From an uncultured Chloroflexia bacterium (GTDB taxonomy: Bacteria; Chloroflexota; Dehalococcoidia; DSTF01; JALHUB01), in assembly GCA_963703345.1 (NCBI GenBank), contig OY969814.1, forward strand, positions 2,119,998 to 2,183,997: a stretch of DNA of 64,000 nucleotides. The letters run 5' to 3'. The translations under genes and the position numbers were made by a program. The notes beneath the pieces were generated by a model. That model had not been told where the DNA came from. It was given only the letters and a program-made list of their open reading frames with translations, and made no database searches. Positions 5,315 through 57,666 of this stretch are shown here, in pieces. Positions within the stretch are counted from its first letter, which is position 1. The number at the start of each line of letters is the position of its first letter.

Positions 5315-5824
5315 CTACGGCTGCTCCGTCTGCGTCGGCGTCGGCGTTGGCTCGTTGTTGTGCGACTTCGGGCCGTGCGGCTTCACGGCCTGACACGGAA
5401 CATTCACCTGCTTGCCCGACGGCACAATTTTGATTACCGTCTCGCCCTTGTCACAAACGCCGTCGCCGTTCTCAGGATGCTTGCTCGGATTGCTGTCGGG
5501 TATCCCGACAACGTCGCGCTGGCCCTCGCCCGGAGTGGGCGTCGCCGTGTTGGTCGGCGTCGGCGTGTAGGTGTTAGCCGGCGTCGCCGTGTCCGTAGGC
5601 GTCGGCGTCGCGGTGTCCGTAGGCGTGGCCGTCGCCTCGTCAACCGCAATCGATTCGGCAGAGGGAGTCTCCGCCTGGCCGACCACTTGCGACGTGCCTC
5701 TGTCCACCCCCCGGAAGACGCTGTCCTGGGAAGCGAACGTCGCGGCGCTGCCGCTGGACAGAGCTGCCACCACGACCAATGCGATTGCCTTGTGCTTCAT
5801 CGCTAGAATCAGCAAACTTCTCAT
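5315..5824 (-). CDS. Secreted protein with Pro/Thr linker and small Cys-containing C-terminal domain
   Basis: ATG 5824 preceded by AAGGAGGAAGT. Signal peptide MRSLLILAMKHKAIALVVVAALS. TATPTDTATPTPTDTATP linker. Confidence 0.65.
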   Translation of the reverse strand: MRSLLILAMKHKAIALVVVAALSSGSAATFASQDSVFRGVDRGTSQVVGQAETPSAESIAVDEATATPTDTATPTPTDTATPANTYTPTPTNTATPTPGEGQRDVVGIPDSNPSKHPENGDGVCDKGETVIKIVPSGKQVNVPCQAVKPHGPKSHNNEPTPTPTQTEQP

Positions 5825-5978
5825 ACTTCCTCCTTGCGAAAGCAGCGTTTTCTGGCGAGGGTCTACTGAATCAATCGGCACAAAGGCGGGGATCTGTGCC
5901 CCAACGGCCCGGCTTTTCGCGTCGCCTTGCTTCTCTTCTCACCAGCCATATTGAGTTGCGAGCGGCAACGCTCTGACT

Positions 5979-9211: not shown

Positions 9212-10507
9212 ATGAAGTACAACAAGGATGACCGCAGCCCGAGGCGCGCTGCACGGGTCATCGGAAGACGGGGAGGAGCCGCTCTGGCCCTGGCGATGGG
9301 CCTGGCGCTGATCGCAGGGATGGTCATTTGGTCCCCCTGGGCTGGGGCAACCGGTTCGGGCCCCCTCCATGGCATCAGCTTCCTCAAGGGCTGCGCCGGT
9401 CCGACAAACGTGGGTGACCCGTACACCTGCTCGTTCTCAATTACGAACACTGCCGACGAGGCCCAGGACACCCTGACCATCACAGTCGTAGATGACTTAG
9501 TGCATGCTACTGGCGGCGACGCTGATTCGGGCAACTTGCTGCCGGGCGCAAGTCTCACCTTCGGCTTGAACGGCACCGCATCCTGCAACGTCGGCCAGAC
9601 GCTCTGCACGCTTCCCTTCGGCTCGTCTATCACCTTCACGCAGACAGCGAACCTCTACATCGTCAAGGCCACCGATCCGAACCCCTTGACCGACACGGCG
9701 AACTTGACGTGGCAGGACAAATGCGACAAGGGCGCTACAAACTGTCCGCTGGGAGACCAGACCGCGTCCAGCGGCTCTCAGTCGCCGCTGCAGACGCCGA
9801 CGTTCACGCCTACGAACACGCCGACGAATACGCCGACGAACACACCCACAAACACGCCGACGAATACGCCGACAAACACACCGACGAACACGCCGACGAA
9901 CACGCCGACGAACACGCCGACGATCACGCCGACAAACACGCCGACGATCACGAACACGCCGACGAACACACCGACTAACACGCCGACGATCACGAACACG
10001 CCGACGAACACGCCGACGAACACGCCGACGATCACGCCGACGTCGACCAACACGCCCGCGCTCGGGTGTGCCCTCAGCCCCGGCTTCTGGAAGGGCAGCG
10101 CAGCTAACCAGGCATTGTGGGATAGCCCCACGGATCCGATCGCCATAGCAGCCGGATTCTATGGTGGGCTAACCTTCCCGAAGACCAGTCTGACGTACCT
10201 CCACGTGATGCAGCTGCCCAAGGGGGGCGACGTCACTATCCAGCTCGCCTTCAAGTACATCGCGGCTCGGCTGAATGTCGCCGACGGCCTTACGAATCCT
10301 GCGTACTTGTCTGGGCTACTGGATCAGATTCTGAAGCCAAGTGGCGCGCCACCAATGACGGGATCAGCTTGCAGCGGTGGCTTCTTGTGCACCAACCCCG
10401 TAGGCAGCAATCCTGGCACCATCGCCGCTGCGGTTGGGAAGATCCTCCTCGGCCAGATCGACAACTACTTCTCAACGGTTGGCGAGACCGGCTGCCCTAG
10501 CAGCTAG
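9212..10507 (+). CDS. Secreted protein: DUF11-like beta domain, (TNTP)n linker, Cys-containing C-terminal domain of unknown function
   Basis: ATG after AAGGAGGGTAAGAC. N-terminal TM/signal. [24 protein letters not shown]. More than 20 TPTN repeats. C-terminal [20 protein letters not shown]... Confidence 0.8.
9790..10055. repeat. 12-bp-period tandem repeat encoding (T-P-T-N/I)n
   Basis: ACGCCGACGAAC-type units repeated with third-position variation. Confidence 0.85.
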
Positions 10508-10641: not shown

Positions 10642-10847
10642 CGTACCTCAAGCGGCCACCCACTCGTAGGACACGGAGGCCCAACAGACGGACATTACCG
10701 GGCGGGGGACCCGTCAGGCGCCGGCTGAACGACAGTCGGAGCGCTTCGGCAGGAGCCGGAGCGTTCGTCATTTCCAAACGCGGGAAAGGCGCGACTGTTT
10801 TCAAGCGAAGGTGCGGGAATCGACGGCGGACGTGAGAATCGAGGCGG

Positions 10848-11546
10848 CTAGCCGGTCGTCCGGGCCAGGCGACGCCGGCGGGCGCGCTCCAGCTCGGCGA
10901 GCTGCGAGAGCGCTTTGCGGGTGTCCGACGCGACGCGGGCACGGTCGCAGTTGCGCAGGCGGTACTTGAAGAGCCAGTACGCGAATGCGCGCATGTCGCT
11001 GTAGGCGATGGCGTCGCCCTGCGGTAAGCCTTTCTCCGCGCGGAAGCGCGTCAGCAGCTCCATTCGCCCCTTGCCGTAGATGCGCTCGCAGACCTCTTCG
11101 TCGGCCGGTCGGCAGCGGGTGGCGCACTGGGCGAAGCGCTCCTTGTGCAACTCCTCTTCGACGGCGAGCTGCAACGCCTCTTCGACGACGACGCCGTAGA
11201 GGTAGTTGAGGTAGGCGGTGTGCTTGGCGGCGCCGATGGCGCCCTTGAAGGTCGCGGCGTCGCAGTCGAGCGGCATCTGGCCGAAGAAGAGCAGCGCCTC
11301 GCGCTCTTCATCGGGGACGGCGCCGTCGAGCGAGTCGGTGAGGCGCTCGGCGAGGAGCAGCCAGTCGAAGGCTTCGCCGTCGATGAGATAGCAGTAGCGC
11401 CTGTCGCCGACGGTCTCCTCCGGCAGTTGCCAGAGGGCAACGGCGTCGAGCAGCGCGGGGAACCAGTGGGCGCCGCCGGCCAGCGCCTGGCGCAGGTGCG
11501 CGAAGGCCTCGTCGCAGCTTGGCGTGCGCTCCGGGGTGTCCTCCAT
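10848..11546 (-). CDS. Conserved-looking hypothetical protein downstream of secA
   Basis: ATG 11546 after GAGGAGAGGCGG. 232 aa. Codon usage like neighbours. No motif recognised. The longer ORF upstream would overlap the secA 3' end. Confidence 0.6.
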   Translation of the reverse strand: MEDTPERTPSCDEAFAHLRQALAGGAHWFPALLDAVALWQLPEETVGDRRYCYLIDGEAFDWLLLAERLTDSLDGAVPDEEREALLFFGQMPLDCDAATFKGAIGAAKHTAYLNYLYGVVVEEALQLAVEEELHKERFAQCATRCRPADEEVCERIYGKGRMELLTRFRAEKGLPQGDAIAYSDMRAFAYWLFKYRLRNCDRARVASDTRKALSQLAELERARRRRLARTTG

Positions 11547-11565
11547 CCGCCTCTCCTCGTCCACT

Positions 11566-14220
<2,655 letters not shown>

Positions 14221-17138: not shown

Positions 17139-18005
17139 CTACCCTGCCAGCGGCTTCTCCGTGTAGACAACGACGCTCTTCGGATAGAAGCGGTTTCCCG
17201 CCTCGTCGAGCACGTGGTAAAGCAGCGAATACGGCTCGGCGTTTGACCGGTCCCGCCACCGATTCAGCGCCTCGACCGACCAGCCGCGCATGTAGGGGCA
17301 GGCGTCGAGCAGGAATAGGAGCGTCCAGTAGACCGATTCGACGGAGTTGCGCAGGCGTCGCGCATACACTCGCATCCCCGCCGCTTCGACGGCATGGACG
17401 ATGCGACGACGCGTGTAGATGCGACGATGCCCGAACGGGTCGTCGCGGTAGAGGTCGTAGAAACGGTAGGCAATGAACTCCGGCAGCGTGTCCGGAACGC
17501 TGACGACCAACCGACCGCCCGGCTTCAGAACCCGGGCCATCTCGCGCAGGGCCAGACCGGCGTCCGCTACGTGCTCCAGCGTCTCGGTGCAGGCCACGAA
17601 GTCAAACGCGGCGTCGGCGAAAGGCAGCCGACCGCCATCCGCTTGAGCGAAGGCCGGCAGGGGGTCCCTGTCGAGGAGATGCCTGCGGGCCGAAAGCAGG
17701 TCGCGACGGAGGATATCGATGCCGACACTCTTGCAGCCGCGTCCGGCCAGCCGCGAGAGGAGCCGGCCCACGCTGCACCCGACGTCGAGGACGCGGGCGC
17801 CGGGCCAGACGCCCAGCAGCGTGAGGTCAACGACCTCCAGGCGTCGCAGCACGGGGCCGACGACCCAGCGTCGTTGGGGAGATAGGTCGGCCGCCTGTTT
17901 CGGAGCGCTCATGCCATGCGAATCTAGCAGCGCCGCCGGCCCGACGTCAATCGCAATCGTCGCGCTATTGGCGAAACCGAGGAAATGTGCTAGATTCATA
18001 GCCAA
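17139..18005 (-). CDS. Class I SAM-dependent methyltransferase
   Basis: VLDVGCSVGRL (motif I), LKPGGRLVVSVP. Start uncertain: TTG 18005, ATG 17999 or ATG 17912. Confidence 0.75.
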   Translation of the reverse strand: MAMNLAHFLGFANSATIAIDVGPAALLDSHGMSAPKQAADLSPQRRWVVGPVLRRLEVVDLTLLGVWPGARVLDVGCSVGRLLSRLAGRGCKSVGIDILRRDLLSARRHLLDRDPLPAFAQADGGRLPFADAAFDFVACTETLEHVADAGLALREMARVLKPGGRLVVSVPDTLPEFIAYRFYDLYRDDPFGHRRIYTRRRIVHAVEAAGMRVYARRLRNSVESVYWTLLFLLDACPYMRGWSVEALNRWRDRSNAEPYSLLYHVLDEAGNRFYPKSVVVYTEKPLAG

Positions 18006-18994
18006 TGGTTCAAAGGCGTCAGCGCCGGGGTAATCACGCGCCTGTCGCCGTCCTGGCGATAATAGTCATCCTGTCTTCCCTCTACGCCTTCCACTCCTTC
18101 TTCGGGTCCGGTGGCTCCACGCGCTGCGCCGGCGGCGACTGCGCGGCGATAGTGTCGGCTCCGCCGCCGTCGGCGCCGACGCCCGCGCCGACACAACAAG
18201 TGCTGGCGCTCAGCCTGACGCACCCGCCCGATCTGACCGCCGTGTCCGCCGCCGTCGTCGCCGACGACTGCGATGAGCTTCTCTACGCGAAGGACGCGAA
18301 CCGTCGCCTCCCGCCGGCCAGCATCACGAAGGTCATGACAGCGATCGTCGCGTCGGAGGCGAGCAGCCCAGACGACATGGTGGACGTCAACATCGACGGC
18401 TTCTTCGCCGGCGACAGCACGGTGATGGGGCTGGAGACGGGAATGCGGCTGTCCATGCGCGACCTCCTCTACGGCCTCCTCTTGCCTTCCGGGAACGACG
18501 CCGCTGTCGCCATTGCCCGTTACATCGCCGGCGGCGTTCCATCGTTTGTCAATCGCATGAACGCGAAGGTGCGCGAGCTGGGGCTGCAGGACACGCAATT
18601 CACCAATCCCCACGGCCTCGACGCCGCGGGGCACTACTCCTCAGCCTACGACATGGTCATGATCGGCCGCTATGCGATGAAGGACCCGCTGATCGCCGAG
18701 ATCGTGAAGACGAAGCAGTACACAGCGAACTGGAGCGGCCCCGAGCTCTGGAACGGCAACCTGCTCCTCTGGCTCTACCCCGATGCCGACGGCATCAAGA
18801 TCGGCTGGACGGAGAAGGCGGGACAGACGCTCATGGCGACGGCCCAGCGCGACGGACATCGCGTCTACCTGGCGCTCTTCGGCAGCCAGGACCGCTACAC
18901 GGACGCCATTCGTCTCTTCGACTGGGCTTTCGACACTCTGGGAAGCACGCCTGGGGAGAACTGCGCCGCCGTCTCAACCGACGGCTCTCAATAG
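18005..18994 (+). CDS. D-alanyl-D-alanine carboxypeptidase (S11 penicillin-binding protein)
   Basis: N-terminal TM anchor. SITK (SxxK) and SGND motifs. Possible leaderless start: TTGGCG-17-(TGc)TAGATT ends 8 nt before the ATG. Confidence 0.85.
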   Translation: MVQRRQRRGNHAPVAVLAIIVILSSLYAFHSFFGSGGSTRCAGGDCAAIVSAPPPSAPTPAPTQQVLALSLTHPPDLTAVSAAVVADDCDELLYAKDANRRLPPASITKVMTAIVASEASSPDDMVDVNIDGFFAGDSTVMGLETGMRLSMRDLLYGLLLPSGNDAAVAIARYIAGGVPSFVNRMNAKVRELGLQDTQFTNPHGLDAAGHYSSAYDMVMIGRYAMKDPLIAEIVKTKQYTANWSGPELWNGNLLLWLYPDADGIKIGWTEKAGQTLMATAQRDGHRVYLALFGSQDRYTDAIRLFDWAFDTLGSTPGENCAAVSTDGSQ

Positions 18995-26687: not shown

Positions 26688-28031
26688 TTACTCGAAGATC
26701 GTCTTGCGGGGCGTGGGGGTGGGGCTGGGTATGCTCGTCGGATGAGGCGTGGCCGTGGGCCTGCGCGTAGGTCCAGTGCTCGGCGTATCTGCCGTCGTAG
26801 GGATTGGAGCCGCCGTCGGCGCGGTAGTTGGAGAGACACGCGGATGTTGTGTCGCCGGTGACACCGGGGTTATCGTCGGCGGCTCTGCCGTTGGCGACTC
26901 GGTTGCGATCCTGGTGACCGTCACCGACGCCGTCGGCCCGACGGTACGCGTCGCTGTCGGCGGGCGCTTCGTCGCGGTCGCAAAGGTCGACGAAACGGAG
27001 GGAGAGCTGGGGCCGGAAAACGAAATGGAGAACACGGCGATGACGGGCATCATCGCCAGCAGCACGACGGCGCAGAGGACGAGGAACAGGTCTCTCCCGC
27101 CGAACGACTGCCCGGAGCCGCGGCCGGCCGTATCGACTCTTCGCGTCAGCGCGGAAAGGCTCTTACTCAGTCCGGCCTTCCTGACGGGGCGACGCCCCGG
27201 CTGCGCCCATTGTGTCTCCAGGTTCTTCCAAATGCGCTCCTTCAAACCGGCCGGAGGCGGAACGGCCGCAAACGCGCCGAACACGGCCAGCGGCGCGAGG
27301 ACAGAGCGACGCGTCTGCTCGCAGACGGCGCAGCTTTCGACATGGCGCTCGACGGTGCGGCACATCTCCAGCGTGAGAGGCGGGATGGAGAACCGGCCAA
27401 CGATTCGCCGCAGCGTCGGGCAGCTTCCGGCGCCGCGTCGCATGAGCAGGTAGGCCCCAATCACCTCTTCGACGGAGCGCATCATGCGACTGAGCATGGT
27501 GTAGGCGTTGCCCTTGCTCACGCCCAGCACCTCCGCGATCTCGGCGCTCTCCAGCCCCTGACGGACGTGCAGGTCGAGCACGGCGTAAGTGCGACGGTCC
27601 AGGCTTGTGGCTGCTTGCCAGACGAGTCGTGCCGTCTCCTGCATCTCCAGCGCCTGCTCCGGATCGGCCAGACGATCCGCGTCCACCTGCTGCAGTAGCG
27701 CGTCCGACTCCTCGCCGTCCGCTCCCTGGGAAACGGATGGCGAGAGGAAATGCCTCTGACCCGCGATGCGGTTCAGGGCCTGGTTGTGGGCTATGGAGAA
27801 GAGCCAGCTCTTGAAGGCGGCGGGCTTGGCGAGCGCGGAGAGGTTCTGCATGGCACGTAGAAACGTCTCTTGCGTTACGTCGGCCGCGTCTTCGGCGCTG
27901 CGAAGGGTGCGATGGAGGAAGTCGTAGACGGGCGGGAAGTAGCGATCGTACAGCTCGCCGAAAGCCGCGCTCTCGCCGCTGAGGGCGCGAGTAACGAGCT
28001 CGCCGTCGCCTGAGACTGGAGTCGCCGTCAT
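26688..28031 (-). CDS. ECF-type sigma factor fused to a zinc anti-sigma (HxxxCxxC) domain, one TM helix and a PT-rich extracytoplasmic tail
   Basis: Region 2 YDRYFPPVYDFLHRTL...DVTQETFLRA. Region 4 ESAEIAEVLGVSKGNAYTMLSRM. ERHVESCAVCEQ. TM LFLVLCAVVLLAMMPVIAVFSI. PT-rich C-terminus. Confidence 0.85.
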   Translation of the reverse strand: MTATPVSGDGELVTRALSGESAAFGELYDRYFPPVYDFLHRTLRSAEDAADVTQETFLRAMQNLSALAKPAAFKSWLFSIAHNQALNRIAGQRHFLSPSVSQGADGEESDALLQQVDADRLADPEQALEMQETARLVWQAATSLDRRTYAVLDLHVRQGLESAEIAEVLGVSKGNAYTMLSRMMRSVEEVIGAYLLMRRGAGSCPTLRRIVGRFSIPPLTLEMCRTVERHVESCAVCEQTRRSVLAPLAVFGAFAAVPPPAGLKERIWKNLETQWAQPGRRPVRKAGLSKSLSALTRRVDTAGRGSGQSFGGRDLFLVLCAVVLLAMMPVIAVFSISFSGPSSPSVSSTFATATKRPPTATRTVGPTASVTVTRIATESPTAEPPTITPVSPATQHPRVSPTTAPTAAPIPTTADTPSTGPTRRPTATPHPTSIPSPTPTPRKTIFE

Positions 28032-28194
28032 AGCGGTACCGAATGCGGACCCCTGTGTTCAGCAAGTCTAACATTATCAGCGGTCCTTCGCTAGTTAGAC
28101 AGCCGGAGGCGTCAATTCTTACATGCCGGAAATGCGAGAAGGGAGGCGAGTCAAAGGAGCGGCGTCGAATGGAGAAACGACGCGAATAGCCTGG

Positions 28195-47712: not shown

Positions 47713-47872
47713 CGTCGCAGCCCTCACTTAAACGCTACCGTGTCTGCAGGCCATGTTCAAGTGGGAAGGCGTTCGCTTGCGATGGCGAGTCTGCGCGGTG
47801 TTTCGGTTGATTCATCATCCTGTGGCTGATAGTCTTTAGGCATCGGGCGCTGAACGAGAGAGGTGGTCGGCC

Positions 47873-48646
47873 ATCATTCCTCAGCGGTTCCTCCGGACGT
47901 GGGAGCTCCTCTATCTACTCACCGCCAGGGAGCTCAAGCTCCGCTACCAGGACACGATCCTCGGCTTTGTCTGGTCGGTGCTGAAGCCGCTCATGCTGGG
48001 CGCCGTCCTCTACTTCGCCCTCAGCCGTTTCGCGCGGATTCACTCGGACATACCCTATCAGCTCGTTCTGTTGCCGGCACTCTTCCCGTGGGCGTGGTAC
48101 CAGACCTCCGTGCTGATGTCGGCGCCCGTCATCACGCACAACGGCAACCTGATCAAGAAAGTGCACTTCCCGCGCTACGTGCTGCCGTTCGCGACCGTGG
48201 CCAACAACATGGTGCATTTCGTGATGACGCTGCCGATTATCACCGTCATCATACTCGCCTCGGGAAGGCACCCTTCGGCGAACTGGCTTATCGGCATCCC
48301 GCTGCTCACCCTGGTCGAGCTGGTGCTGCTGATGGGCACCGTTCTCATCGTGTCCTCCATCGACGTCTACTTCCGCGACCTGGAGCACCTGGTGGAGGTT
48401 TTCCTGAACCTGCTGTTCTACATGACGCCGATCATTTATCCACTAAGCCAGACGGGTCGCTACAAGCACCTTCTAATGCTCAATCCTTTGGCGTCGCTGA
48501 TCGAGAGCTGGCGGAACCTGTTCGTTTTCAACCAGTTGCCGACGATAGTCGATCTATGGCCCTCACTGGCGTTTGCCGCCGCTTCGGTGCTGTTGGGCAG
48601 CTTCGTTTTCGGACGTTTGGAGCGGGGGTTCGCGGATGCTCTCTGA
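47873..48646 (+). CDS. ABC-2 polysaccharide/teichoic-acid export permease (Wzm/TagG-like); start codon unresolved
   Basis: LTARELKLRYQDTILGFVWSVLKPL signature lies upstream of the first canonical start (GTG 47978). The frame opens after TAG 47837-39. GAGAGAGG lies 10 nt before ATC 47873. Confidence 0.7.
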   Translation: MIPQRFLRTWELLYLLTARELKLRYQDTILGFVWSVLKPLMLGAVLYFALSRFARIHSDIPYQLVLLPALFPWAWYQTSVLMSAPVITHNGNLIKKVHFPRYVLPFATVANNMVHFVMTLPIITVIILASGRHPSANWLIGIPLLTLVELVLLMGTVLIVSSIDVYFRDLEHLVEVFLNLLFYMTPIIYPLSQTGRYKHLLMLNPLASLIESWRNLFVFNQLPTIVDLWPSLAFAAASVLLGSFVFGRLERGFADAL

Positions 48647-49412
48647 CGGTACCGCTATCGCCCTCGAAGGCGTCTCCAAGCGCTATTTCCTGCGGGCGCA
48701 GAAGCCGGAGGAGATCAAGACCACCGTCCTCCACCTGCCCTCGTTCCTGCGCGGCAACGCCGGCCGCCCGTTCTGGGCCCTGGACGACGTGTCTTTCTCG
48801 GTGAAGCGAGGCGACAGCCTGGGCATCATCGGGCCGAACGGGTCGGGGAAGAGCACACTGCTGAAGATCATAGCCGACCTGGCGCCTCCGACTCGCGGCA
48901 AAGTCGAGGTCGGAGGGCGCGTCTCGGCTTTACTGGAGCTGGGCGCCGGCTTTCATCCCCAGATCACTGGGCGGGAGAACGCCATCCTCAATGCCGTCCT
49001 GCTGGGCTTGAGCAAGAAGGAGGCGATGGAGGCTCTCCCCGACATTATCGCGTTTTCCGAACTGGGCGACTTTATCGACGAGCCGATGCGGACCTATTCG
49101 TCCGGCATGTTTGTCCGGCTGGGCTTTTCGGTCGCGGTGCACGTGCGCCCCGACGTGCTGCTGGTTGACGAGGTGCTGGCGGTGGGCGACGGCGAGTTCC
49201 AGCAAAAGTGCTTCGGCCACATCGAGATGCTGCGCTCCAACGGCGTAACGATTGTCTTCGTGTCGCACGACCTGAGCGCCGTCACGCGCTTCTGTGATCG
49301 CGCCGTCCTGATCCAGCACGGCCAGCTCCAAATGCAAGGCGACTCGGAACCGGTGGTGCAGGAGTACCGGGACAGGATTGCGGCTTTTTTCGGGGGTAAG
49401 TTATCATCCTAG
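48636..49412 (+). CDS. ABC polysaccharide export ATP-binding protein (Wzt/TagH-like)
   Basis: GPNGSGKSTLLK, YSSGMFVRLGFSVA, LLVDEVLAVGD. Overlaps the permease stop. Confidence 0.9.
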   Translation: MLSDGTAIALEGVSKRYFLRAQKPEEIKTTVLHLPSFLRGNAGRPFWALDDVSFSVKRGDSLGIIGPNGSGKSTLLKIIADLAPPTRGKVEVGGRVSALLELGAGFHPQITGRENAILNAVLLGLSKKEAMEALPDIIAFSELGDFIDEPMRTYSSGMFVRLGFSVAVHVRPDVLLVDEVLAVGDGEFQQKCFGHIEMLRSNGVTIVFVSHDLSAVTRFCDRAVLIQHGQLQMQGDSEPVVQEYRDRIAAFFGGKLSS

Positions 49413-49434
49413 CTGACGGGAGGGAGCCCCAGGC

Positions 49435-50010
49435 ATGATCAGCCTCGAGTTCGACCGCTCGCGGAAACAGACCGGCGCCTTGAGGGTCAGCCGGAAGGCC
49501 GGTCCGGGCGTCGCGGTCCTGGCAGACGTGGGCGACGGACTGCCCTTCAAGGACGACAGCGTGGAAGAGATCTATCTCGACCACGCGCTGGAGGACGTCC
49601 ACGACTTCCTGGCGGCGATGCGCGAGATCTGGCGCATCTGCCGTCCCGGCGCCCTCGTCCACGTCTGGCTGCCACACGCCTCTTCCACGTGGGCGACTTC
49701 GCGTAATCCGGGCCAGACGCGCCCCTTCACCATCGAGACGTTCGATTTCTTCGACCCGGAGCGGAACCCGACCCCCCCTGACGGCGCAACATTCGAGACA
49801 GAACAGGCGAAGCTCTCCCTCACGACCCTCCGCCTGGGGCAGCGGCCGCGCCTGACCGGCGGGCTCGTTGCGTCGGTCGTCGAGTCGCTGGCGAACCGCA
49901 ACCGCGGCGCCCAGTACCGCTGGGAGCGCTGGCTGGGCGCGACAATCGGCTTTGAGGAGTTTTACGTCCTCCTGACGGCGGTCAAGCCCCCCACCTGGGC
50001 CGACGTGTAG
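49435..50010 (+). CDS. Methyltransferase-type-11-like protein lacking an obvious GxGxG motif
   Basis: GLPFKDDSVEEIYLDHALEDV...IWRICRPGALVHVWLP. Confidence 0.6.
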   Translation: MISLEFDRSRKQTGALRVSRKAGPGVAVLADVGDGLPFKDDSVEEIYLDHALEDVHDFLAAMREIWRICRPGALVHVWLPHASSTWATSRNPGQTRPFTIETFDFFDPERNPTPPDGATFETEQAKLSLTTLRLGQRPRLTGGLVASVVESLANRNRGAQYRWERWLGATIGFEEFYVLLTAVKPPTWADV

Positions 50011-50044
50011 CGGCCCTTGCTCTGAGCCCCCGCGAAGAGGCAGC

Positions 50045-50635
50045 ATGAGCGACAACGTCTGGAACGAGATCCGCTCCGACTACGACGCCTATTACTACTC
50101 CAGCTTCACCTGGCTGCCGGACCCGAACAAAGGGATCTGGAAGCGCCGCTGGGAACGTTTCGATGGGATCGTCCTGCGCGGGTCGTGGCCGGCCGTCGTC
50201 TGCTACCGCCTGAAGGCGTGGGCGCTTCGTAGGAGCATCCCCCTCCTCCCGTTCGTCTGCGATACGCTCAATCGTGTCTTCTGGGGCATCGTCATCGGCG
50301 ACGGCGTGGAGATCGGGCGCGGCCTGTGCATCGTTCATGGCTACGTCGTCATCGACGGCGCCGTGGTCATCGGAAAGAACTGCTACATCAACCCTCACGT
50401 CACCATCGGTCTCCGCGGCGGCAACGTATTCTCGCTGGACGGCCCGCGGCTGGGCGATAACGTGTACGTCGGCACCGGCGCCAAGGTGCTGGGCGCGATA
50501 ACGGTCGGCCACAACGTGACGATAGGCGCCAACGCCGTCGTCATCAGCGACATTCCGGACAACCATACGGCCGTGGGGGCGCCGGCCCGTGCCATACCGA
50601 AGAAGACGGAGCCGGAGAAGACGCGTCGGGGATAG
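50045..50635 (+). CDS. Hexapeptide-repeat O-acetyltransferase (serine acetyltransferase-like)
   Basis: IGDGVEIGRGLCIVHGYVVIDGAVVIGKNCYI...LGDNVYVGTGAKVLGAITVGHNVTIGANAVV. Confidence 0.85.
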   Translation: MSDNVWNEIRSDYDAYYYSSFTWLPDPNKGIWKRRWERFDGIVLRGSWPAVVCYRLKAWALRRSIPLLPFVCDTLNRVFWGIVIGDGVEIGRGLCIVHGYVVIDGAVVIGKNCYINPHVTIGLRGGNVFSLDGPRLGDNVYVGTGAKVLGAITVGHNVTIGANAVVISDIPDNHTAVGAPARAIPKKTEPEKTRRG

Positions 50636-50662
50636 CGGAGAGCCGGGAGGCTTCTGACAGGC

Positions 50663-51271
50663 GTGTTCGAGAACATCCGCGAGGACTTCAAGGTGTATGC
50701 GCAGTTGACGGGCGTGCGCAGGGGCAGGGGAATCCTCGGCGCATCATGGCTCTTCGACGCGCGCCGGTTCCTGGCGGCGCTGTGGGTTTTCCCGCTGTCG
50801 GCCGTCGTCATCTACCGCGGGAAGTGCTGGCTGCGGGCGCATCACCTGCCCATCCTGCCGCGCCTTCTCGACTGGCTGAACATCGTCCTCTGGCAGGTGC
50901 AGATAGCCGACAACGCCAGCATCGGGCCGGGGCTGTGCATATCGCACGGGTCGGTCATGATCGCCGGCGAGGTCAAGATCGGGCGCAACTGCACGTTGAA
51001 CCCCTGGACCGGGCTGGGTCTGATCCACAAGCGGAAGGTTGAGAACCCCTGGGACGGGCTGGTCGGACCGACGGTTGGCGACAACGTGTTCGTCGGCGTC
51101 GGCTCGCGCATCATGGGGCCGATAACGATCGGCGACAACGTGCGCATCGGGGCGAACTCGATCGTTATTCACGACGTGCCGAGCGACAGCGTGGTAATCG
51201 GCGTGCCGGCGCGGGTGCTCGACATGACAGACCCCGAGCAGCGGGCGATCGTGCAGGACGTGATCGACTGA
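50663..51271 (+). CDS. Hexapeptide-repeat O-acetyltransferase (paralog)
   Basis: Same architecture as 50045-50635. IADNASIGPGLCISHGSVMIAG...VGDNVFVGVGSRIMGPITIGDNVRIGANSIV. Confidence 0.85.
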   Translation: MFENIREDFKVYAQLTGVRRGRGILGASWLFDARRFLAALWVFPLSAVVIYRGKCWLRAHHLPILPRLLDWLNIVLWQVQIADNASIGPGLCISHGSVMIAGEVKIGRNCTLNPWTGLGLIHKRKVENPWDGLVGPTVGDNVFVGVGSRIMGPITIGDNVRIGANSIVIHDVPSDSVVIGVPARVLDMTDPEQRAIVQDVID

Positions 51272-51753
51272 TGATCGGCAAGCTCTGGCGACGGCTGCGT
51301 CCGCGCACCCCATTGGTCTGGATAACGCCGGAGCTGGCGCTGGGCCCCGCCTTGCCACCCGACCGCCTCCGTCTGCTGACAAAGGCCGGCATCGGCAGCG
51401 TCGTCGACGTGCGCAGCGAGGCGTGTGACGACGAAGCGGCGCTTGCCCGGCACAACCTGGCTTTTCCCGTCGATGACCGCGAGGCGGCCAGCCAGGAGCA
51501 GCTCCGCGCGGCAACCGAGTGGACGCTGGCTGAGATAGCGGCCGGGCGCAGAGCCTACATCCACTGTCGCAGCGGCATCGGCCGGAGCCCGAGCATCGCC
51601 TGCGCCGTCCTCTTGGCCATCGGCTACCCTCTGCCGGACGCCTACCAGATCGTCCGCCGTCAGCGCCCCTGGGCCGCCTGCAGCGAGACGCAGCGCCAGG
51701 CGCTCGAGGAGTTCGAGCGTCGACAGCGCGAACAGGCTGCTCCAACGGCTTAG
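51271..51753 (+). CDS. Dual-specificity / tyrosine phosphatase-like protein
   Basis: P-loop HCRSGIGRS (HCx5R). TGATG overlap with the upstream gene. Confidence 0.75.
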   Translation: MIGKLWRRLRPRTPLVWITPELALGPALPPDRLRLLTKAGIGSVVDVRSEACDDEAALARHNLAFPVDDREAASQEQLRAATEWTLAEIAAGRRAYIHCRSGIGRSPSIACAVLLAIGYPLPDAYQIVRRQRPWAACSETQRQALEEFERRQREQAAPTA

Positions 51754-52125
51754 GGAAAACCCCTCACCGCAGCCAGACTCAGGCGGCCACGCCGCTTCGC
51801 CGGTCTCCCAATCGGCGTAATTCCCAAAGGAGCCACGGATCAATGGTTTCCTGGCGTTCCTCAGCGAGTTCCCCTGATTGAACCCGCCCCTCTGAGTGAG
51901 CGACCATACTTCAAGCGCCCGACTATTGCTGGAAAGGAAACCGCATGGAGCTCATCGCTAGATGTGGCCAAGGGCATAACCGAAGGGCGGCTCGTCTTCG
52001 GAAAGTCACCGACTAAACCTACCGGTGAGCCGTGACCAACTCGTGACGAAGATGACCGTTAGTGTGTGCCGGAGCAGCGCGTCACCCGGGTGGAGATGCC
52101 GCTTCCCGGACAGAGGGAGAGAGCA

Positions 52126-55100
52126 ATGAGAACGAGAATCCGCCTGGTTGCCGGAAGCACGGCGATAGTCGCGCTTGCTGTCTTGTCGGGTCTCATCTTC
52201 GCAGCTCCCACCAAGAGCGGTGCAGACGATGCTGTGCAGTTCACACTCGATTCCTCCAGCTACAGCGCCGCGGTGGGGGATACGTTTGACGTCAAGGTCA
52301 ACCTGGGAGTGCTAACCAACAACGTCTCGCTCTTCGCCTTCCGTCTTCCCTACGACCATGACACCCTGCAGATCATCAGCACTGTTCCGGACAATCCCGC
52401 GCCGTGTCCATCGGGGCTAAGCGATGTCGAGATACTGGACTGGGACTACAACGGCCTGGCGCTGCGCCTCCAATGCGAGAGCGTTGACGGGAGCGCCGAT
52501 CCGCCTTTGACCGGGACCGCCCAACTGATAGACATCACATTCCAATGCGCCGCAGCGGGCAGCACTAGCCTTCAGATTGGCGCCCAAAACGCGATTGATG
52601 CCGACGGCAACAACTACGGCGCGACTGCCGGGCCGGCCGCAGGCGTCGTCTGCAACGACGCCCAGTTGACCATCGTCAAGCACGTTGTGAACGATGACGG
52701 CGGCGAAGCGGACGCTTCCGACTTCACCATGAGCGTCACCGGCACTAACGTGCAGCCTTCCGACAGCTTCGCCGGCAACGAGGACGGCACCACCGTCACC
52801 CTCGACGCCGGCCCCTACTCCGTCGGTGAGACCGGCCCAAGCGGTTACAGCAGGAGCGACTCCGTGGACTGCTCGGGGACAATCGCTCTCGGTGAGTCGA
52901 AGACCTGCACCATCACCAACAACGACGAGCCCGGCACGCTGACCGTTATCAAGCATGTCGTGAACGACGACGGCGGCGCGAAGGTCGCCGGGGACTTCAG
53001 CTTCAGCGTGAACGGTGGCGATCCGACCTTCTTCAGTCAGGACCCGGAGGACGCCAGCCTGGGTGAGAACAGCCTGACGGAGGACGCGGGCACCTACAGT
53101 GTGGTCGAGGCCGGGGTACCGATTAGCGGCTACACGACGACGTACGACAACTGCGCCGACGTCAGCATCGCCAACGGTGAGACGCAGACCTGCACCATCA
53201 CCAACGACGACACAGCTCCGACGCCCACTGGGACGCCAACAGACACGCCGACGGTGACGGATACGCCCACTGAGACGCCGACTGAGACGCCGACCGACAC
53301 GCCGACGGTGACGGATACGCCCACTGAGACGCCGACTGAGACGCCGACCGACACGCCAACGGTGACGGATACGCCCACTGAGACGCCGACGGTGACGGAT
53401 ACGCCGACCGACACGCCGACGGTGACGGATACGCCGACTGAGACGCCGACGGTGACGGATACGCCGACTGAGACGCCGACGGTGACGGATACGCCAACCG
53501 ACACGCCGACGGTGACGGATACGCCAACCGACACGCCAACGGTGACGGATACGCCGACCGACACGCCAACGGTGACGGATACGCCGACCGACACGCCGAC
53601 GGTGACAGATACGCCGACTGAGACGCCGACTGAGACGCCGACGGCGATACCAACCGTGCAGTTCGCACTCGATTCCCCCAGCTACACCGCCGACGTGGGA
53701 CATACATTCCACGTCATCGTCAGCCTAGGAGACCTGACGAACAACGTCTCGATCTTCGACTTCCGTCTTCCCTACAACCATGGAATCTTGCAGGTCGTCG
53801 CCACTGTTCCGGACAATCCCAACCCCTGCCCATGGTTGCTGGACGACTACGAGAGGTTGAACCGGGACTACGCCGGTGTGGGATTGCGCTTCCAATGCGA
53901 CAACTTCAGCGGGGGCGCTAATCCGGCTCAGAGCGGGACCGTCCAACTGATAGACATTACGTTCGAGTGCACCGCAGCGGGCAGCGCTAGCCTTCAGATT
54001 GGCTCCCAGTACGCGATTGATGGCGACGGCATAGACTACGGCGCGACTGCCGGGCCTGCCGCGGACGTCGTCTGCAACGAGGCCCCGGCAACCGACACGC
54101 CGACGCCGACGGATACGCCAACTGAGACGCCGACGGATACGCCAACTGAGACGCCAACGGTGACGGATACGCCAACCGAGACGCCGACCGACACGCCAAC
54201 GGTGACGGATACGCCAACTGAGACGCCGACCGACACGCCAACGGTGACGGATACGCCAACTGAGACGCCGACCGACACGCCGACGGTGACGGAGACGCCG
54301 ACCGAGACGCCAACGGTGACGGATACGCCAACCGAGACGCCGACCGACACGCCAACGGTGACGGATACGCCAACCGAGACGCCGACGGTGACACCAACCG
54401 ACACGCCGACGGCGACACCAACCGACACACCGACGGTGACACCAACCGACACGCCGACGGTGACGGATACGCCGACTGAGACGCCGACCGACACGCCGAC
54501 GGTGACGGAGACGCCAACCGACACGCCGACGGTGACAGATACGCCGACTGAGACGCCGACGGTGACACCAACCGACACGCCGACGGCGACACCAACCGAC
54601 ACACCGACGGCGACACCAACCGACACGCCGACGGTGACACCAACCGACACGCCGACGGCGACGGATACGCCGACTGAGACGCCAACGGTGACGGATACGC
54701 CGACCGACACGCCGACGGTGACGGATACGCCGACTGAGACGCCAACGGTGACGGATACGCCGACTGACACGCCGACGGTGACGGATACGCCAACCGAGAC
54801 GCCGACCGACACGCCAACGGTGACGGATACGCCGACTGAGACGCCGACGGTGACACCAACCGACACGCCGACGGCGACACCAACCGACACACCGACGGTG
54901 ACACCAACCGACACGCCGACGGTGACGGATACGCCGACTGAGACGCCAACGGTGACGGATACGCCAACCGAGACGCCGACGGTGACACCAACCGACACGC
55001 CGACGGCGACACCAACCGACACACCGACGGCGACGCCAACCCAGACGCCAACGGTGACGGATACACCAACCGACACGCCGACGGCGACACCAACCGACAC

Positions 55101-55551
55101 ACCGACGGCGACACCAACCGACACACCGACGGCGACACCAACCGACACGCCGACGGCGACGGATACGCCGACTGAGACGCCAACGGTGACGGATACGCCG
55201 ACTGAGACGCCGACGGTGACGGCGACCGCGATCGCCACCGCGACAGCGACAAGCGTGTATCATCGGTCGGCGACGGCCACCAGCACTCCCCTTCCGACGG
55301 ATACGCCGGCGGCCACGGCTACGCCGACCAATGGACGCCAGCCAGCGGCGCCACAGGCACCTGTCGAGGGGCCCGGCTCCGGCCCGCCACCAAACGGAGG
55401 TGCAGCCGGCGCAGGAGTGACGGCGCCGAAGACGGGGGAAGCCGACCCCGCGACCGGTGACAGTGCTTACATAATGGTCGCGGCACTCTTGGGTGCGCTG
55501 GCCGTGGCGCTCACGCTGACCAGTCTCGCCATGCGCAAGCAGAGGTTCTAG
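52126..55551 (+). CDS. Large surface protein: signal peptide, cohesin-like module 1, two prealbumin/SpaA-like domains, PT array, cohesin-like module 2, long PT array, sorting-signal-like anchor
   Basis: ATG after GGGAGAGAGCA. Modules at 52228-52665 and 53650-54085 are mutually similar (VQF(T/A)LDS.SY.A.VG.TF.V.V.LG.LTNNVS.F.FRLPY.H..LQ...TVPDNP...LIDITF.C.AAGS.SLQIG). LT(I/V)(V/I)KHVVNDDGG domains occur twice. Tail VTAPKTGEA...TM...RKQRF. Confidence 0.85.
53215..53655. repeat. PT tandem-repeat array 1 (units of 24/36 bp encoding [14 protein letters not shown])
   Basis: ACGGTGACGGATACGCC(G/A)AC(C/T)GA(C/G)ACGCC(G/A) iterated. Confidence 0.9.
54085..55250. repeat. PT tandem-repeat array 2 (about 1.15 kb, same unit family)
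   Basis: As array 1, with additional ACACCAACCGACAC(G/A)CCGACGG(C/T)G units. Confidence 0.9.
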
Positions 55552-55604
55552 CGAAGCGGGCTGCTTCGACGATTAGAAAGCCGCGCCGAAAGACGAAAGA
55601 AAAG

Positions 55605-55632
55605 GGAGCCCTTCCAAAACCGGAAGGGCTCC
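55605..55632 (+). terminator. Hairpin downstream of the large surface-protein gene
   Basis: GGAGCCCTTCC-AAAACC-GGAAGGGCTCC. No U-tract. Confidence 0.45.
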
Positions 55633-55743: not shown

Positions 55744-56853
55744 ATGAAGGTACTGGTTACCGGCGGCTGCGGCTTCATCGGTTCGCACACCGTCAACGCC
55801 CTGCTGGAACGCGGTCACGAAGTGCGCATCCTCGACTCGCTGGAGCCACCCGTCCACAACGGCAAACCACCGGACTACCTGCCGCCGGAGGCCGAGTTCA
55901 TCCGCGGCAGCGTCACCGATCCGAGGGCCTTGAGAGACGCGCTCGACGGCATCGATGCGGTCTTCCATTTCGCGGATTATCAGGACTGCCCGACCGCCTT
56001 CTCGCACTTCTTTCAGACCAACAGCGTCGGCACTGCGATGCTCTACGAAACCATCGTCAACCGGCACCTTCCGATTGCCAAGGTTGTCGTGGCGTCGTCT
56101 CAGGCCGTCTACGGCGAAGGGAAATACCTGTGCGTGCTCCACGGCACGCGGTACCCTGGCCAGCGGCTGCGACAACAGCTCAGTCGCGGCGACTGGGAGC
56201 TGCGCTGCCCCGATTGCGGTCAGCCGCTGGAGCCGGTCTGGACGGACGAAACCGTGACGGCGCCGCACAACAGCTACGGCCTCTCCAAGCGCGATCAGGA
56301 GGACCTGGCGATTCAGCTCGGCCGCCGCTACGACATTCCCAGCGTCGCTCTGCGCTACTCCATCGTCCAGGGACCGCGCCAGTCCTTCCGCAACGCCTAC
56401 TCCGGCGCGCTACGATCGTTCGCGGTGCGCGTCCTGACGGGCGCGCCGCCGGTCATCTACGAAGACGGCCAGCAACTACGCGACTATGTCTCGATCCGCG
56501 ACGTCGTTGCCGCCAACCTGCTCGTGCTGGAGGACGACCGCGCCGACTATCAGGTGTTCAATGTCGGCGGTGACCGGCGGATCACGGTCCTTGGGCTCGC
56601 CTGGATGGTCTGTCACGCCGCGGAAGTCGACATCGTGCCGGAATGTTGCACGCTCTACCGACTCGGCGACACGCGTCACATCTTTTCCGACGTTTCGCGA
56701 CTCCGCGCCCTCGGCTGGGAGCCAAAGGTCAGCGAGACGGAGATCGTGCGCGAGTACCTGGAGTGGGCGTCGCAGCAGCCGGACCTGAGCGATACATTCG
56801 CCGCGGCGCAGGAGGTGATGGAGTCGGCCGGCGTGCTGGGGAAGGCCGCATAG
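55744..56853 (+). CDS. NAD-dependent sugar-nucleotide epimerase/dehydratase with Cys4 insertion
   Basis: MKVLVTGGCGFIGSH, YGLSK catalytic motif, insert C..H...CPDCG. Confidence 0.88.
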   Translation: MKVLVTGGCGFIGSHTVNALLERGHEVRILDSLEPPVHNGKPPDYLPPEAEFIRGSVTDPRALRDALDGIDAVFHFADYQDCPTAFSHFFQTNSVGTAMLYETIVNRHLPIAKVVVASSQAVYGEGKYLCVLHGTRYPGQRLRQQLSRGDWELRCPDCGQPLEPVWTDETVTAPHNSYGLSKRDQEDLAIQLGRRYDIPSVALRYSIVQGPRQSFRNAYSGALRSFAVRVLTGAPPVIYEDGQQLRDYVSIRDVVAANLLVLEDDRADYQVFNVGGDRRITVLGLAWMVCHAAEVDIVPECCTLYRLGDTRHIFSDVSRLRALGWEPKVSETEIVREYLEWASQQPDLSDTFAAAQEVMESAGVLGKAA

Positions 56854-57149
56854 ATAGGAAAAGCGCTGCTCCCGCGTCCGTCACCGCTGACCGGTCTTCT
56901 AAGCGACCGGCCCGTCCGGATGCGACCCGCGTGGGTCATGTCCAGGCTACATGCGTAGGTGCGACCCTCGCGCTCGTCGCCGGAGCTTGTTCCCTGCCCC
57001 GTTCAGGCAAGACCATCGGTTGCGACAGAGACATTTCAGTCGCTACGGACTCCATTCCAGATAACGACTCGGAAGAGGCAGGGAGGCGGGCCCTGCGAAT
57101 CCAACTTACGGTTCGTCGGGGGCCCGGACAATCGGGCAAAGCCCTCATA

Positions 57150-57177
57150 TTGCGGGCGGCGGCGATTGCGCTATACT
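57150..57177 (+). promoter_or_regulatory. Candidate promoter of the RmlC-like gene
   Basis: TTGCGG-16 nt-TATACT, 30 nt before the ATG. Confidence 0.35.
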
Positions 57178-57207
57178 GCGGCTGATACCGAAGCGAGGGG
57201 ACGTTTG

Positions 57208-57666
57208 ATGATTGAAGGCGTCGAGCTGAAGGAGCTGGTCACGCACAGCGACGAGCGCGGCTTCTTTCGCGAGATCGTGCGCGGGACGGAGGCGATTGCT
57301 GTCGAGGGCTTTGCGCAGGTCGGCCACTCGCTGATGTTCCCCGGCGTAATCAAAGCCTGGCACGTCCACCCGCATCAGATCGACTGGTGGTACGTGGTGG
57401 CCGGCGACCTCAAAGTCGCGCTGTACGATCTGCGAGAGGGCTCTTCGACGTGCGGAGAGCTGCAGGAAGTCTTCCTCGGCGACCACTATCCGAAGCGGCT
57501 GCTCAAGATACCGGCGGGCGTGGCCCACGGCTGCAAGGCGATAGGCGGACAAGCGCACCTGGTGTACCTGACATCGAGCACGTACGACGTCGCGGAAGAG
57601 GGGCGTTTGCCGCACGACGACCCGCGCATCGGCTACGATTGGCTGGCGCCGCCGCCGATAAGCTAG
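57208..57666 (+). CDS. RmlC-like cupin sugar-nucleotide epimerase (short form)
   Basis: HSDERGFFREI, KAWHVHPHQIDWWYVVAGDLKVALYDLR, IPAGVAHG. Confidence 0.75.
   Translation: MIEGVELKELVTHSDERGFFREIVRGTEAIAVEGFAQVGHSLMFPGVIKAWHVHPHQIDWWYVVAGDLKVALYDLREGSSTCGELQEVFLGDHYPKRLLKIPAGVAHGCKAIGGQAHLVYLTSSTYDVAEEGRLPHDDPRIGYDWLAPPPIS

Follow-up and report, generated by a model that had tools for sequence, protein, structure and literature searches.

Cohesin–dockerin assembly is best understood as a device of the Bacillota for plant cell wall degradation. Proven roles elsewhere are few (PMC4611034). The locus described here raises the question of whether a bacterium of the Dehalococcoidia (Chloroflexota) uses the same two modules to hold proteases at its surface. 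The window, which is the whole stretch of 64,000 nucleotides that was analysed (contig OY969814.1 of GenBank assembly GCA_963703345.1; GC content 64.4%), encodes a scaffoldin-like protein at positions 52126 to 55551 of the plus strand and, 43.9 kb away, a protease (P0026) at positions 6307 to 8268 of the minus strand. An initial annotation of this DNA had proposed that two similar modules of the first protein are cohesins, that the second protein ends in a dockerin and that the two form a non-cellulosomal surface display system. The reading preferred here, regarded as reasonably likely, is that a surface-anchored two-cohesin scaffoldin captures dockerin-bearing secreted proteins, with C1 cysteine proteases carrying a DUF333 domain as the prime candidates. 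The features of both genes are listed in Table 1.

The two modules were compared with each other and with known cohesins. They are 66% identical and 78% similar over 143 residues without gaps (E 2e-67), which is far beyond chance, and the consensus pattern quoted for them in the initial annotation was accurate. The expected match to Pfam Cohesin (PF00963; gathering threshold 24.1 bits) was obtained for module 1 at 31.3 bits (E 2.7e-7; model positions 3 to 124 of 139); module 2 alone scored 21.8 bits, just under the threshold. The Pfam scan of the whole scaffoldin returned no Cohesin match because the repeat-rich linkers suppress it, and this probably explains why such proteins go unannotated. 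An exhaustive search of 1.84 billion representative proteins with a profile of the two modules alone gave 25 matches at E <= 1e-3, and 16 of the 24 matches that were scanned are Pfam Cohesin proteins.

Models of the module were prepared with AlphaFold2 (AF2). From a two-sequence alignment, the predicted local distance difference test score (pLDDT) was 66.8 and the top matches in the Protein Data Bank (PDB) were already type-I cohesins; from a 25-sequence alignment, the pLDDT was 92.2 and the predicted template modelling (TM) score 0.87. When the second model was compared with the PDB by Foldseek, the top 50 matches were all cohesins (best E 4.8e-9, TM 0.78-0.79), and cohesins solved in complex with dockerins (6kgc, 2vn5, 3ul4 and 4dh2) were matched at TM 0.74-0.79. 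The predicted fold, a nine-stranded beta-sandwich of the jelly-roll type, is superimposable on solved cohesins and is not that of an unrelated immunoglobulin (Ig)-like domain or carbohydrate-binding module (CBM). Solved cohesins were reached only through profiles or structure comparison: a single module matched no chain among the PDB sequences in phmmer, and a seven-sequence profile of the close family matched cohesin 3l8q (E 6.7e-5). A broader family profile also reached PDB cohesins, a result that is partly circular, since that profile includes bona fide cohesins. In the family alignment four cysteines are invariant in the close family (C60, C83, C107 and C142 of module 1), which suggests two disulfides; we know of no clostridial cohesin that carries these four cysteines. 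We hold with high confidence that modules 1 and 2 are genuine cohesins.

Domain matches arising by chance or from composition in a repeat-rich open reading frame (ORF), or a mis-assembled one, were considered as a trivial explanation. The two linkers of Pro/Thr repeat make up 46% of the scaffoldin, the repeat copy number is possibly unreliable in the assembly, and the whole-protein scan without a Cohesin match points the same way. Against this, the modules are non-repetitive, resemble each other to the extent given above, are conserved across independent metagenomes and are modelled with a cohesin fold at a pLDDT of 92; the GC content at third codon positions, 0.77 in the coding frame, also fits a real gene. 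An artefact is effectively refuted.

Table 1. Features of the scaffoldin and protease genes in the window, and of the dockerin genes beside the cohesin-anchor gene of locus L021 (positions in that locus).
Feature	Position	Strand	Basis or remark
Sec-type signal peptide, scaffoldin	52126-52227	+	Read from sequence: basic n-region, hydrophobic core, SGA cleavage-like site, then DD
Cohesin module 1 (aa 35-180), 4-Cys subfamily	52228-52665	+	Pfam Cohesin, AF2, Foldseek, family alignment
Two tandem SpaA_2 prealbumin-like (Ig-like) stalk domains (aa 181-271, 272-362)	52666-53211	+	
Pro/Thr/Asp-rich linker 1, 146 aa	53212-53649	+	T72 P31 D19; 30-nt tandem repeat, 13.9 copies
Cohesin module 2 (aa 509-653)	53650-54084	+	Family hidden Markov model (HMM), domain E 1.1e-42
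Pro/Thr/Asp-rich linker 2, 378 aa	54085-55218	+	T188 P85 D46; nested tandem repeats of 12-102 nt
C-terminal anchoring region	55219-55548	+	Spacer, motif, helix, tail
Ala/Thr/Pro-rich spacer	55219-55422	+	
APKTGE motif	55423-55440	+	
Hydrophobic helix	55465-55533	+	
RKQRF basic tail	55534-55548	+	
12-bp GC-rich hairpin just past the scaffoldin stop, possible terminator	55599-55632		Reported on minus strand, T tail
Protease N-terminal part: signal peptide or signal anchor, DUF333, Peptidase_C1	6994-8268	-	
DUF333	about 7936-8076	-	64.9 bits
Peptidase_C1 catalytic domain	about 6994-7698	-	PF00112 141 bits, threshold 20.7
Pro/Thr/Ala-rich protease linker	6490-6993	-	Read from translation
Dockerin module (aa 594-653) bracketed by Cys597 and Cys651	6310-6489	-	
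Dockerin Ca loop 1	6439-6474	-	HVNGNGKVTMAD
Dockerin Ca loop 2	6352-6387	-	DINHDAKVNNTD
L021 neighbours of P0004	10046-10741, about 10741-12645, 1352-2065	-	Flanking genes ending in TSP3 repeats and Dockerin_1

The scaffoldin ORF, which ends at 55551, has candidate starts at 52066 (GTG) and 52126 (ATG). The ATG is the better start because GGGAGAGAG lies about 4 nt upstream of it and because the homolog P0001 has an equivalent start (MKTRIRL). Read from there the protein has 1141 residues and a signal peptide, as annotated. The Ig-like domains that had been reported between the modules are two SpaA_2 domains (PF19403, 64 bits in two stretches, threshold 25; internal repeat LT[IV][VI]KHVVNDDGG...TCTITN[ND]D), and the linkers, of 146 and 378 residues, are indeed very long. 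Nested tandem repeats encode both linkers, and the exact linker length is therefore subject to the quality of the assembly. From a 372-nt gap upstream and the strong hairpin after the stop, the gene was taken as a separate transcription unit; the count of hairpin-type sites around it is not above the shuffled expectation.

The C-terminus has the layout of motif, hydrophobic stretch and basic residues expected of the cell-anchoring tail that had been predicted, and the LPXTG model was not matched. The curated sorting-signal models of NCBIfam (LPXTG, PEP-CTERM, GVDTG and LAXTG) all stayed below their cutoffs on this tail, and for this reason the scaffoldin is not claimed as a sortase substrate. 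The Pfam scan of the scaffoldin gave no SLH match. The safe reading, from sequence, is that the tail would be a C-terminal membrane anchor with a conserved motif that is possibly processed. The motif [AGP]PxTG followed by a hydrophobic stretch and a basic tail was kept in all family members, and so were the signal peptides. Nearly all relatives are single-cohesin proteins of about 280-345 residues (L002, P0002, P0004 and L004-L012) with a signal peptide, a cohesin, a Pro/Thr linker, [AGP]PxTG, a hydrophobic helix and a basic tail; the window scaffoldin is thus an expanded two-cohesin member of a surface-anchor family. The metagenome scan for cohesin relatives used a four-sequence alignment. 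The nearest genome match to the cohesin, at 54% identity, is L002, from a Dehalococcoidia metagenome-assembled genome (MAG) of the SPRUCE peat experiment. Word-indexed homolog searches, whether made with module 1 or with the profile of the family, returned P0001 and P0005 only, and P0001, a frameshifted copy from a near-identical organism, adds nothing independent.

A further relative, P0003 (608 residues, on a 9.2-kb JGI/ENA contig), comprises a Ser/Thr protein kinase domain (Pkinase, 202 bits) that leads through a transmembrane segment and a Pro-rich linker to a cohesin at the C-terminus. This 4-Cys cohesin is 42% identical to module 1 and sits on the extracellular end of the signalling kinase.

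The scaffoldin gene lies amid genes of envelope-glycan type (window positions 47840-51753 and 55744-57666). Upstream are an ABC-2 permease with its ATPase, a methyltransferase, two hexapeptide acyltransferases and a dual-specificity phosphatase, in an order that is syntenic in L001; downstream are an NAD-epimerase/dehydratase and a dTDP-4-dehydrorhamnose 3,5-epimerase-like gene. The gene content is compatible with an envelope-glycan locus, short of proof, and a link of these genes to glycosylation of the Pro/Thr linkers is a possibility. A Peptidase_S11 D-Ala-D-Ala carboxypeptidase (18002-18994, plus strand; 207.9 bits) suggests that the organism makes peptidoglycan, in contrast to Dehalococcoides, which is wall-less.

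The protease ORF was analysed in the same way, and a C1 protease ending in a duplicated Ca-loop module was confirmed. Its catalytic motifs are intact (CGSCWAF with the Cys, NHAV with the His and KNSWG with the Asn), and its catalytic domain is that of a standard papain-like cysteine peptidase (PF00112, MEROPS C1). DUF333 sits where papain-like enzymes usually carry the I29 inhibitor propeptide. The protease linker holds three near-identical repeats of about 43 residues (PTRTATATSAPTATPTATPPPTATLTPTPVPPT[IV]T), which suggest recent repeat expansion or an assembly-sensitive region. Two secreted Pro/Thr-linker proteins without a Pfam match flank the gene (5315-5881, minus strand, and 9212-10507, plus strand); in the latter, of 431 residues, a (PTNT)n linker joins two Cys-containing domains of no assigned type.

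A dockerin consists of two repeats, each some 22 residues long and made up of an EF-hand-like Ca loop of 12 residues, with Asp or Asn at positions 1, 3, 5, 9 and 12, and a helix after it. The Dockerin_1 model (PF00404, threshold 22.9 bits) matched at 25.7 bits in the whole protease and at 30.9 bits in the isolated tail, and phmmer of the tail against the PDB returned the dockerins 2y3n_B (E 1.1e-5), then 1daq, 4fl4_A, 2mte and 1ohz_B. Both helices align to solved dockerins and loop 2 is a canonical Ca loop. The orthologs P0028 (85% identical) and P0030 (71%) keep the dockerin at 34.0 and 40.2 bits, respectively, and conserve the Cys just before loop 1 and the Cys near the C-terminus. This pair may form a disulfide 'clasp', by analogy with the non-covalent clasp reported for the ScaA dockerin (PMC3821032). 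The tail is very likely a genuine dockerin. The description 'type-I dockerin' stood as to the dockerin family; 'type I' was rejected as a firm label, since the Pfam model covers dockerins generally and does not by itself allow the type to be asserted.

The protease belongs to a family of at least 837 homologs (E <= 1e-5), and those that are named are annotated as Dehalococcoidia. Among the best 120 of the 837, double Ca-loop dockerin-like tails of several subtypes were found in 81; in 8 a hydrophobic and basic anchor replaces the dockerin on the same DUF333-C1 catalytic unit, and the remaining 31 have other tail types or are truncated. The interchange of dockerin and direct anchor on the same protease is the strongest comparative argument that the dockerin serves attachment to the cell surface. 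The Cys-bracketed dockerin of the window protease, here called type A, occurred in only 3 of the best 120. The family that the DUF333-C1 fusion defines is very large, falls mostly within the Dehalococcoidia and can exchange its C-terminal modules (Dockerin_1, TSP_3, P_proprotein, Flg_new_2 and membrane anchors). In P0075, P0083, P0101, P0107, P0112 and similar proteins the dockerin is replaced by GGIAELP[PA]L[TA]GAS, then a hydrophobic stretch and then RRR. The score of this tail with the NCBIfam model GVDTG_CTERM is weak (13.9 bits; cutoff 29), and it is possibly a sorting signal that has yet to be characterised.

One paralog, P0027, apparently comes from the same genome as the window protease and is 88% identical to it in the catalytic part. 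It consists of DUF333, a C1 peptidase, a Pro/Thr linker, a cohesin matched over its full length (25.0 bits, model positions 4-139 of 139) and a type-B dockerin (33.8 bits), distinct from type A of the window. With both connector modules, P0027 could act like an adaptor. Taken with the modules of the window, it brings the apparent complement of the genome to three cohesins and two dockerin types at the least.

Direct linkage of cohesin and dockerin genes was seen at locus L021 (ENA ERZ25039477), where the cohesin-anchor gene P0004 (8786-9820) lies 226 bp from a convergent Dockerin_1 gene (29.8 bits) and 7 kb from another dockerin gene (30.3 bits). Upstream of one L021 dockerin tail, frameshifted fragments weakly resemble a signal peptide plus cohesin (family HMM E 7.5e-4), and Pfam gave no Cohesin match on them; a second cohesin encoded there is a possibility. 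At a coarser level, each of the three known carriers of a type-A dockerin belongs to a project in which a close 4-Cys cohesin is present as well: the window protease with the window scaffoldin; P0030 in ERZ25039477 with L001 in ERZ25039519; and P0028 in the Ga0187866 peat series with L003 in Ga0187849 and with the SPRUCE MAG (L002).

The window itself gives no linkage of this kind. The two genes had been described as paired in the same window; they are 44 kb apart with housekeeping genes between them, a physical coincidence, and the pairing was rejected as linkage evidence because cohesin and protease are unlinked here and at other loci. No other cohesin or dockerin was found in the window by tblastn, regular expressions or family-specific HMM scans. 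Neither the roughly 50 window ORFs scanned nor the scaffoldin contained a glycoside hydrolase, CBM or other carbohydrate-active enzyme domain. The window system is on this ground not a cellulosome, and the terms used earlier, no visible glycoside hydrolase and 'non-cellulosomal', hold within the window.

Several observations weigh against capture of the proteases by the scaffoldin. The two genes are separate transcription units, no cohesin was found within 10 kb of related dockerin proteases at five other loci, and no dockerin was found near cohesin loci L001-L013. Co-occurrence at the level of projects may simply track the same lineage in those samples. Dockerin tails, in a family of at least 837 protease homologs, outnumber the 25 cohesin relatives, and most tails therefore cannot depend on the cohesin family of the scaffoldin. 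P0027 allows an adaptor topology, in which the window protease would not be a direct scaffoldin ligand. On the cohesin side, module 2, P0002 and P0004 each lie below the Pfam Cohesin threshold on their own; on the dockerin side, the orthologs have Asp at Ca-ligand positions 1 and 5 of loop 1 (D-V-T-G-D-G) and the window protease has His599 and Asn there, respectively, and Ca binding by its loop may be weakened as a result. As to anchoring, the LPXTG_anchor model (TIGR01167) gave 8.7 bits against a threshold of 15.9 on the scaffoldin tail, and no sortase gene was found among the roughly 50 ORFs scanned in the 64-kb window.

Part of this evidence would also fit a different wiring, in which the scaffoldin cohesins bind other dockerins (type B of P0027 or the TSP3-dockerin tails) and the type-A dockerin binds another cohesin, that of P0027 or one elsewhere in the genome; surface display would still result. 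The cohesin and distinct dockerin of P0027 speak for it. So do the L021 dockerins beside the cohesin anchor, which are of the TSP3-linked type and not type A, and the origin of the type-B protease P0048 from Ga03152xx, the same series as the single-cohesin anchors L004-L013. Against it stands the co-occurrence, at project level, of all three type-A carriers with the closest 4-Cys cohesins. The two scaffoldin cohesins differ from each other at 34% of positions and so may bind different types, type A included, and computation does not separate the specificities. This wiring was judged unlikely.

The excess of dockerin-like tails over detectable cohesins in the lineage and the degenerate loop 1 raise the further possibility that no such partnership exists. 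The cohesin-fold modules would then be adhesin-like or ligand-binding beta-sandwiches on a pilin-like protein, with a polysaccharide, another cell or a mineral surface as ligand, and the protease tail would serve as a Ca2+-binding module for stabilisation or matrix binding and would have no cohesin to partner it. SpaA_2 domains typically occur in adhesins and pilins of Gram-positive bacteria, and the cohesin of P0003, at the extracellular end of a Ser/Thr kinase, is placed like a ligand sensor. Few cohesin–dockerin roles are proven in non-cellulolytic species (PMC4611034), and an adhesin role has been suggested for non-cellulosomal dockerins (PMC10066038). The opposing evidence is that the nearest structural neighbours are cohesins solved in complex with dockerins, that a cohesin-anchor gene adjoins dockerin genes in L021, that cohesin and dockerin occur together in P0027, and that anchor and dockerin tails are interchangeable in the protease family. 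This explanation was considered quite improbable.

Surface capture is accordingly retained here in graded form. On the comparative evidence the scaffoldin likely binds some dockerin protein; that it binds the window protease directly is put forward tentatively, as somewhat short of an even chance. In the mechanism proposed, the scaffoldin would be exported via its Sec signal peptide and held at the cell by the C-terminal hydrophobic helix and basic tail, with processing at xPxTG possible. Cohesin 2 would project on the 378-residue, probably extended Pro/Thr linker, and cohesin 1 further out, on the 146-residue linker and the two SpaA_2 domains. The Pro/Thr stalks may be O-glycosylated. Each cohesin would bind the dockerin of a secreted protein non-covalently and in a Ca2+-dependent manner. 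DUF333-C1 cysteine proteases, including the window protease, would be the prime cargo candidates, and P0027 a possible adaptor. Proteolysis would thereby be kept at the cell surface, where the producing cell could capture the released peptides.

A more far-reaching version, considered doubtful, is a multi-tier, protease-centred analogue of the cellulosome in Dehalococcoidia of peat and sediment. Its tiers would be 4-Cys scaffoldins, anchored in membrane or wall, that bear one or two cohesins on Pro/Thr stalks of great length, a large family of DUF333-C1 proteases with several dockerin subtypes, and adaptor proteases with both cohesin and dockerin, the last of which would permit chains or branched assemblies. 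The kinase P0003, with its extracellular cohesin, might sense occupancy of the system.

The Dehalococcoidia are a widespread uncultured group of peat and sediments, and the only visible cargo here is a class of abundant papain-like proteases. If the binding proposed is real, it would explain how extracellular proteases and their products are retained, which bears on the turnover of organic nitrogen in peat. The toolbox of orthogonal protein connectors would gain a cohesin subfamily with disulfides and a dockerin with a Cys clasp, and standard whole-protein Pfam annotation would be shown to miss such scaffoldins. The multi-tier version, if correct, would amount to an undescribed use of cohesins and dockerins for extracellular protein scavenging in an abundant uncultured lineage.

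Elsewhere in the window, an ORF at 26688-28058 (minus strand; 456 residues) matches sigma-70 regions 2 and 4 within roughly the first 200 residues only; the C-terminal extension of about 250 residues has no Pfam match. The product may be an extracytoplasmic function (ECF) sigma factor that carries a regulatory or anti-sigma-like domain as a fusion.

The modules were finally compared with described systems. The window module has the same fold as clostridial type-I cohesins (6kgc, CohA2 of C. acetobutylicum; 1g1k and 2vn5 of C. cellulolyticum; and, from C. thermocellum, those of CipA (1anu, 1ohz), OlpA (3ul4) and OlpC (4dh2)). The TM score to them is 0.72-0.79, with a root-mean-square deviation of about 3.1-3.9 Å over some 150 columns, and a length of about 145 residues, the first-strand motif 'VG-x-x-F-x-V' and the motif 'F-x-L-x-Y-D' are common to both; identity is only 12-18%, and the four invariant cysteines are a feature of the window module. 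The non-cellulosomal cohesin of Archaeoglobus fulgidus (2xdh) was also among the structural matches (rank 10, TM 0.63-0.67), in a very different protein context.

A full-text literature search found no paper on cohesin–dockerin systems in Dehalococcoidia. The 2009 survey by Peer et al. (FEMS Microbiol Lett 291:1) reportedly lists Chloroflexi and peptidase-linked dockerins. The general phenomenon was thus predicted, and the Dehalococcoidia family is not described in the papers found. Non-cellulosomal cohesin and dockerin modules and dockerin-tethered proteases are already documented (PMC12484212, PMC3573020, PMC4611034). Like other non-cellulosomal systems, that of the window would use cohesin and dockerin outside cellulose degradation, attached to other enzyme classes. 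The R. bromii amylosome is such a use beyond cellulose degradation (PMC4611034) and carries GH13 amylases, whereas a protease is the only cargo class visible in the window.

Dockerin-bearing peptidases on cell-anchored cohesins are documented in R. flavefaciens, where ScaE is paired with the X-dockerin putative cysteine peptidase RflaF_05439, and in C. thermocellum, where ScaD is paired with an S8 double-dockerin protease (PMC3573020; PMC12484212). These peptidase anchors are, by analogy, the closest apparent functional counterparts of the window system: in each, a secreted peptidase with a terminal dockerin is, or in the window would be, the partner of an envelope-fixed cohesin, and anchoring of the protease is proposed, here from sequence. 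ScaE further resembles the single-cohesin anchors among the window relatives. The window system differs from both in its host, which belongs to the Chloroflexota and not the Bacillota, and in having no cellulosome or glycoside hydrolase context. Its peptidase belongs to the papain family (C1), with DUF333 at the N-terminus, and not to NlpC/P60 or S8, and it bears no X-module; its cohesins have four invariant cysteines, its dockerin is bracketed by a Cys pair, and its anchor motif is xPxTG, which fails the LPXTG model. Phylum, C1 and DUF333 cargo, 4-Cys cohesins, Cys-bracketed dockerin and anchor type are what make it distinct among the systems described.

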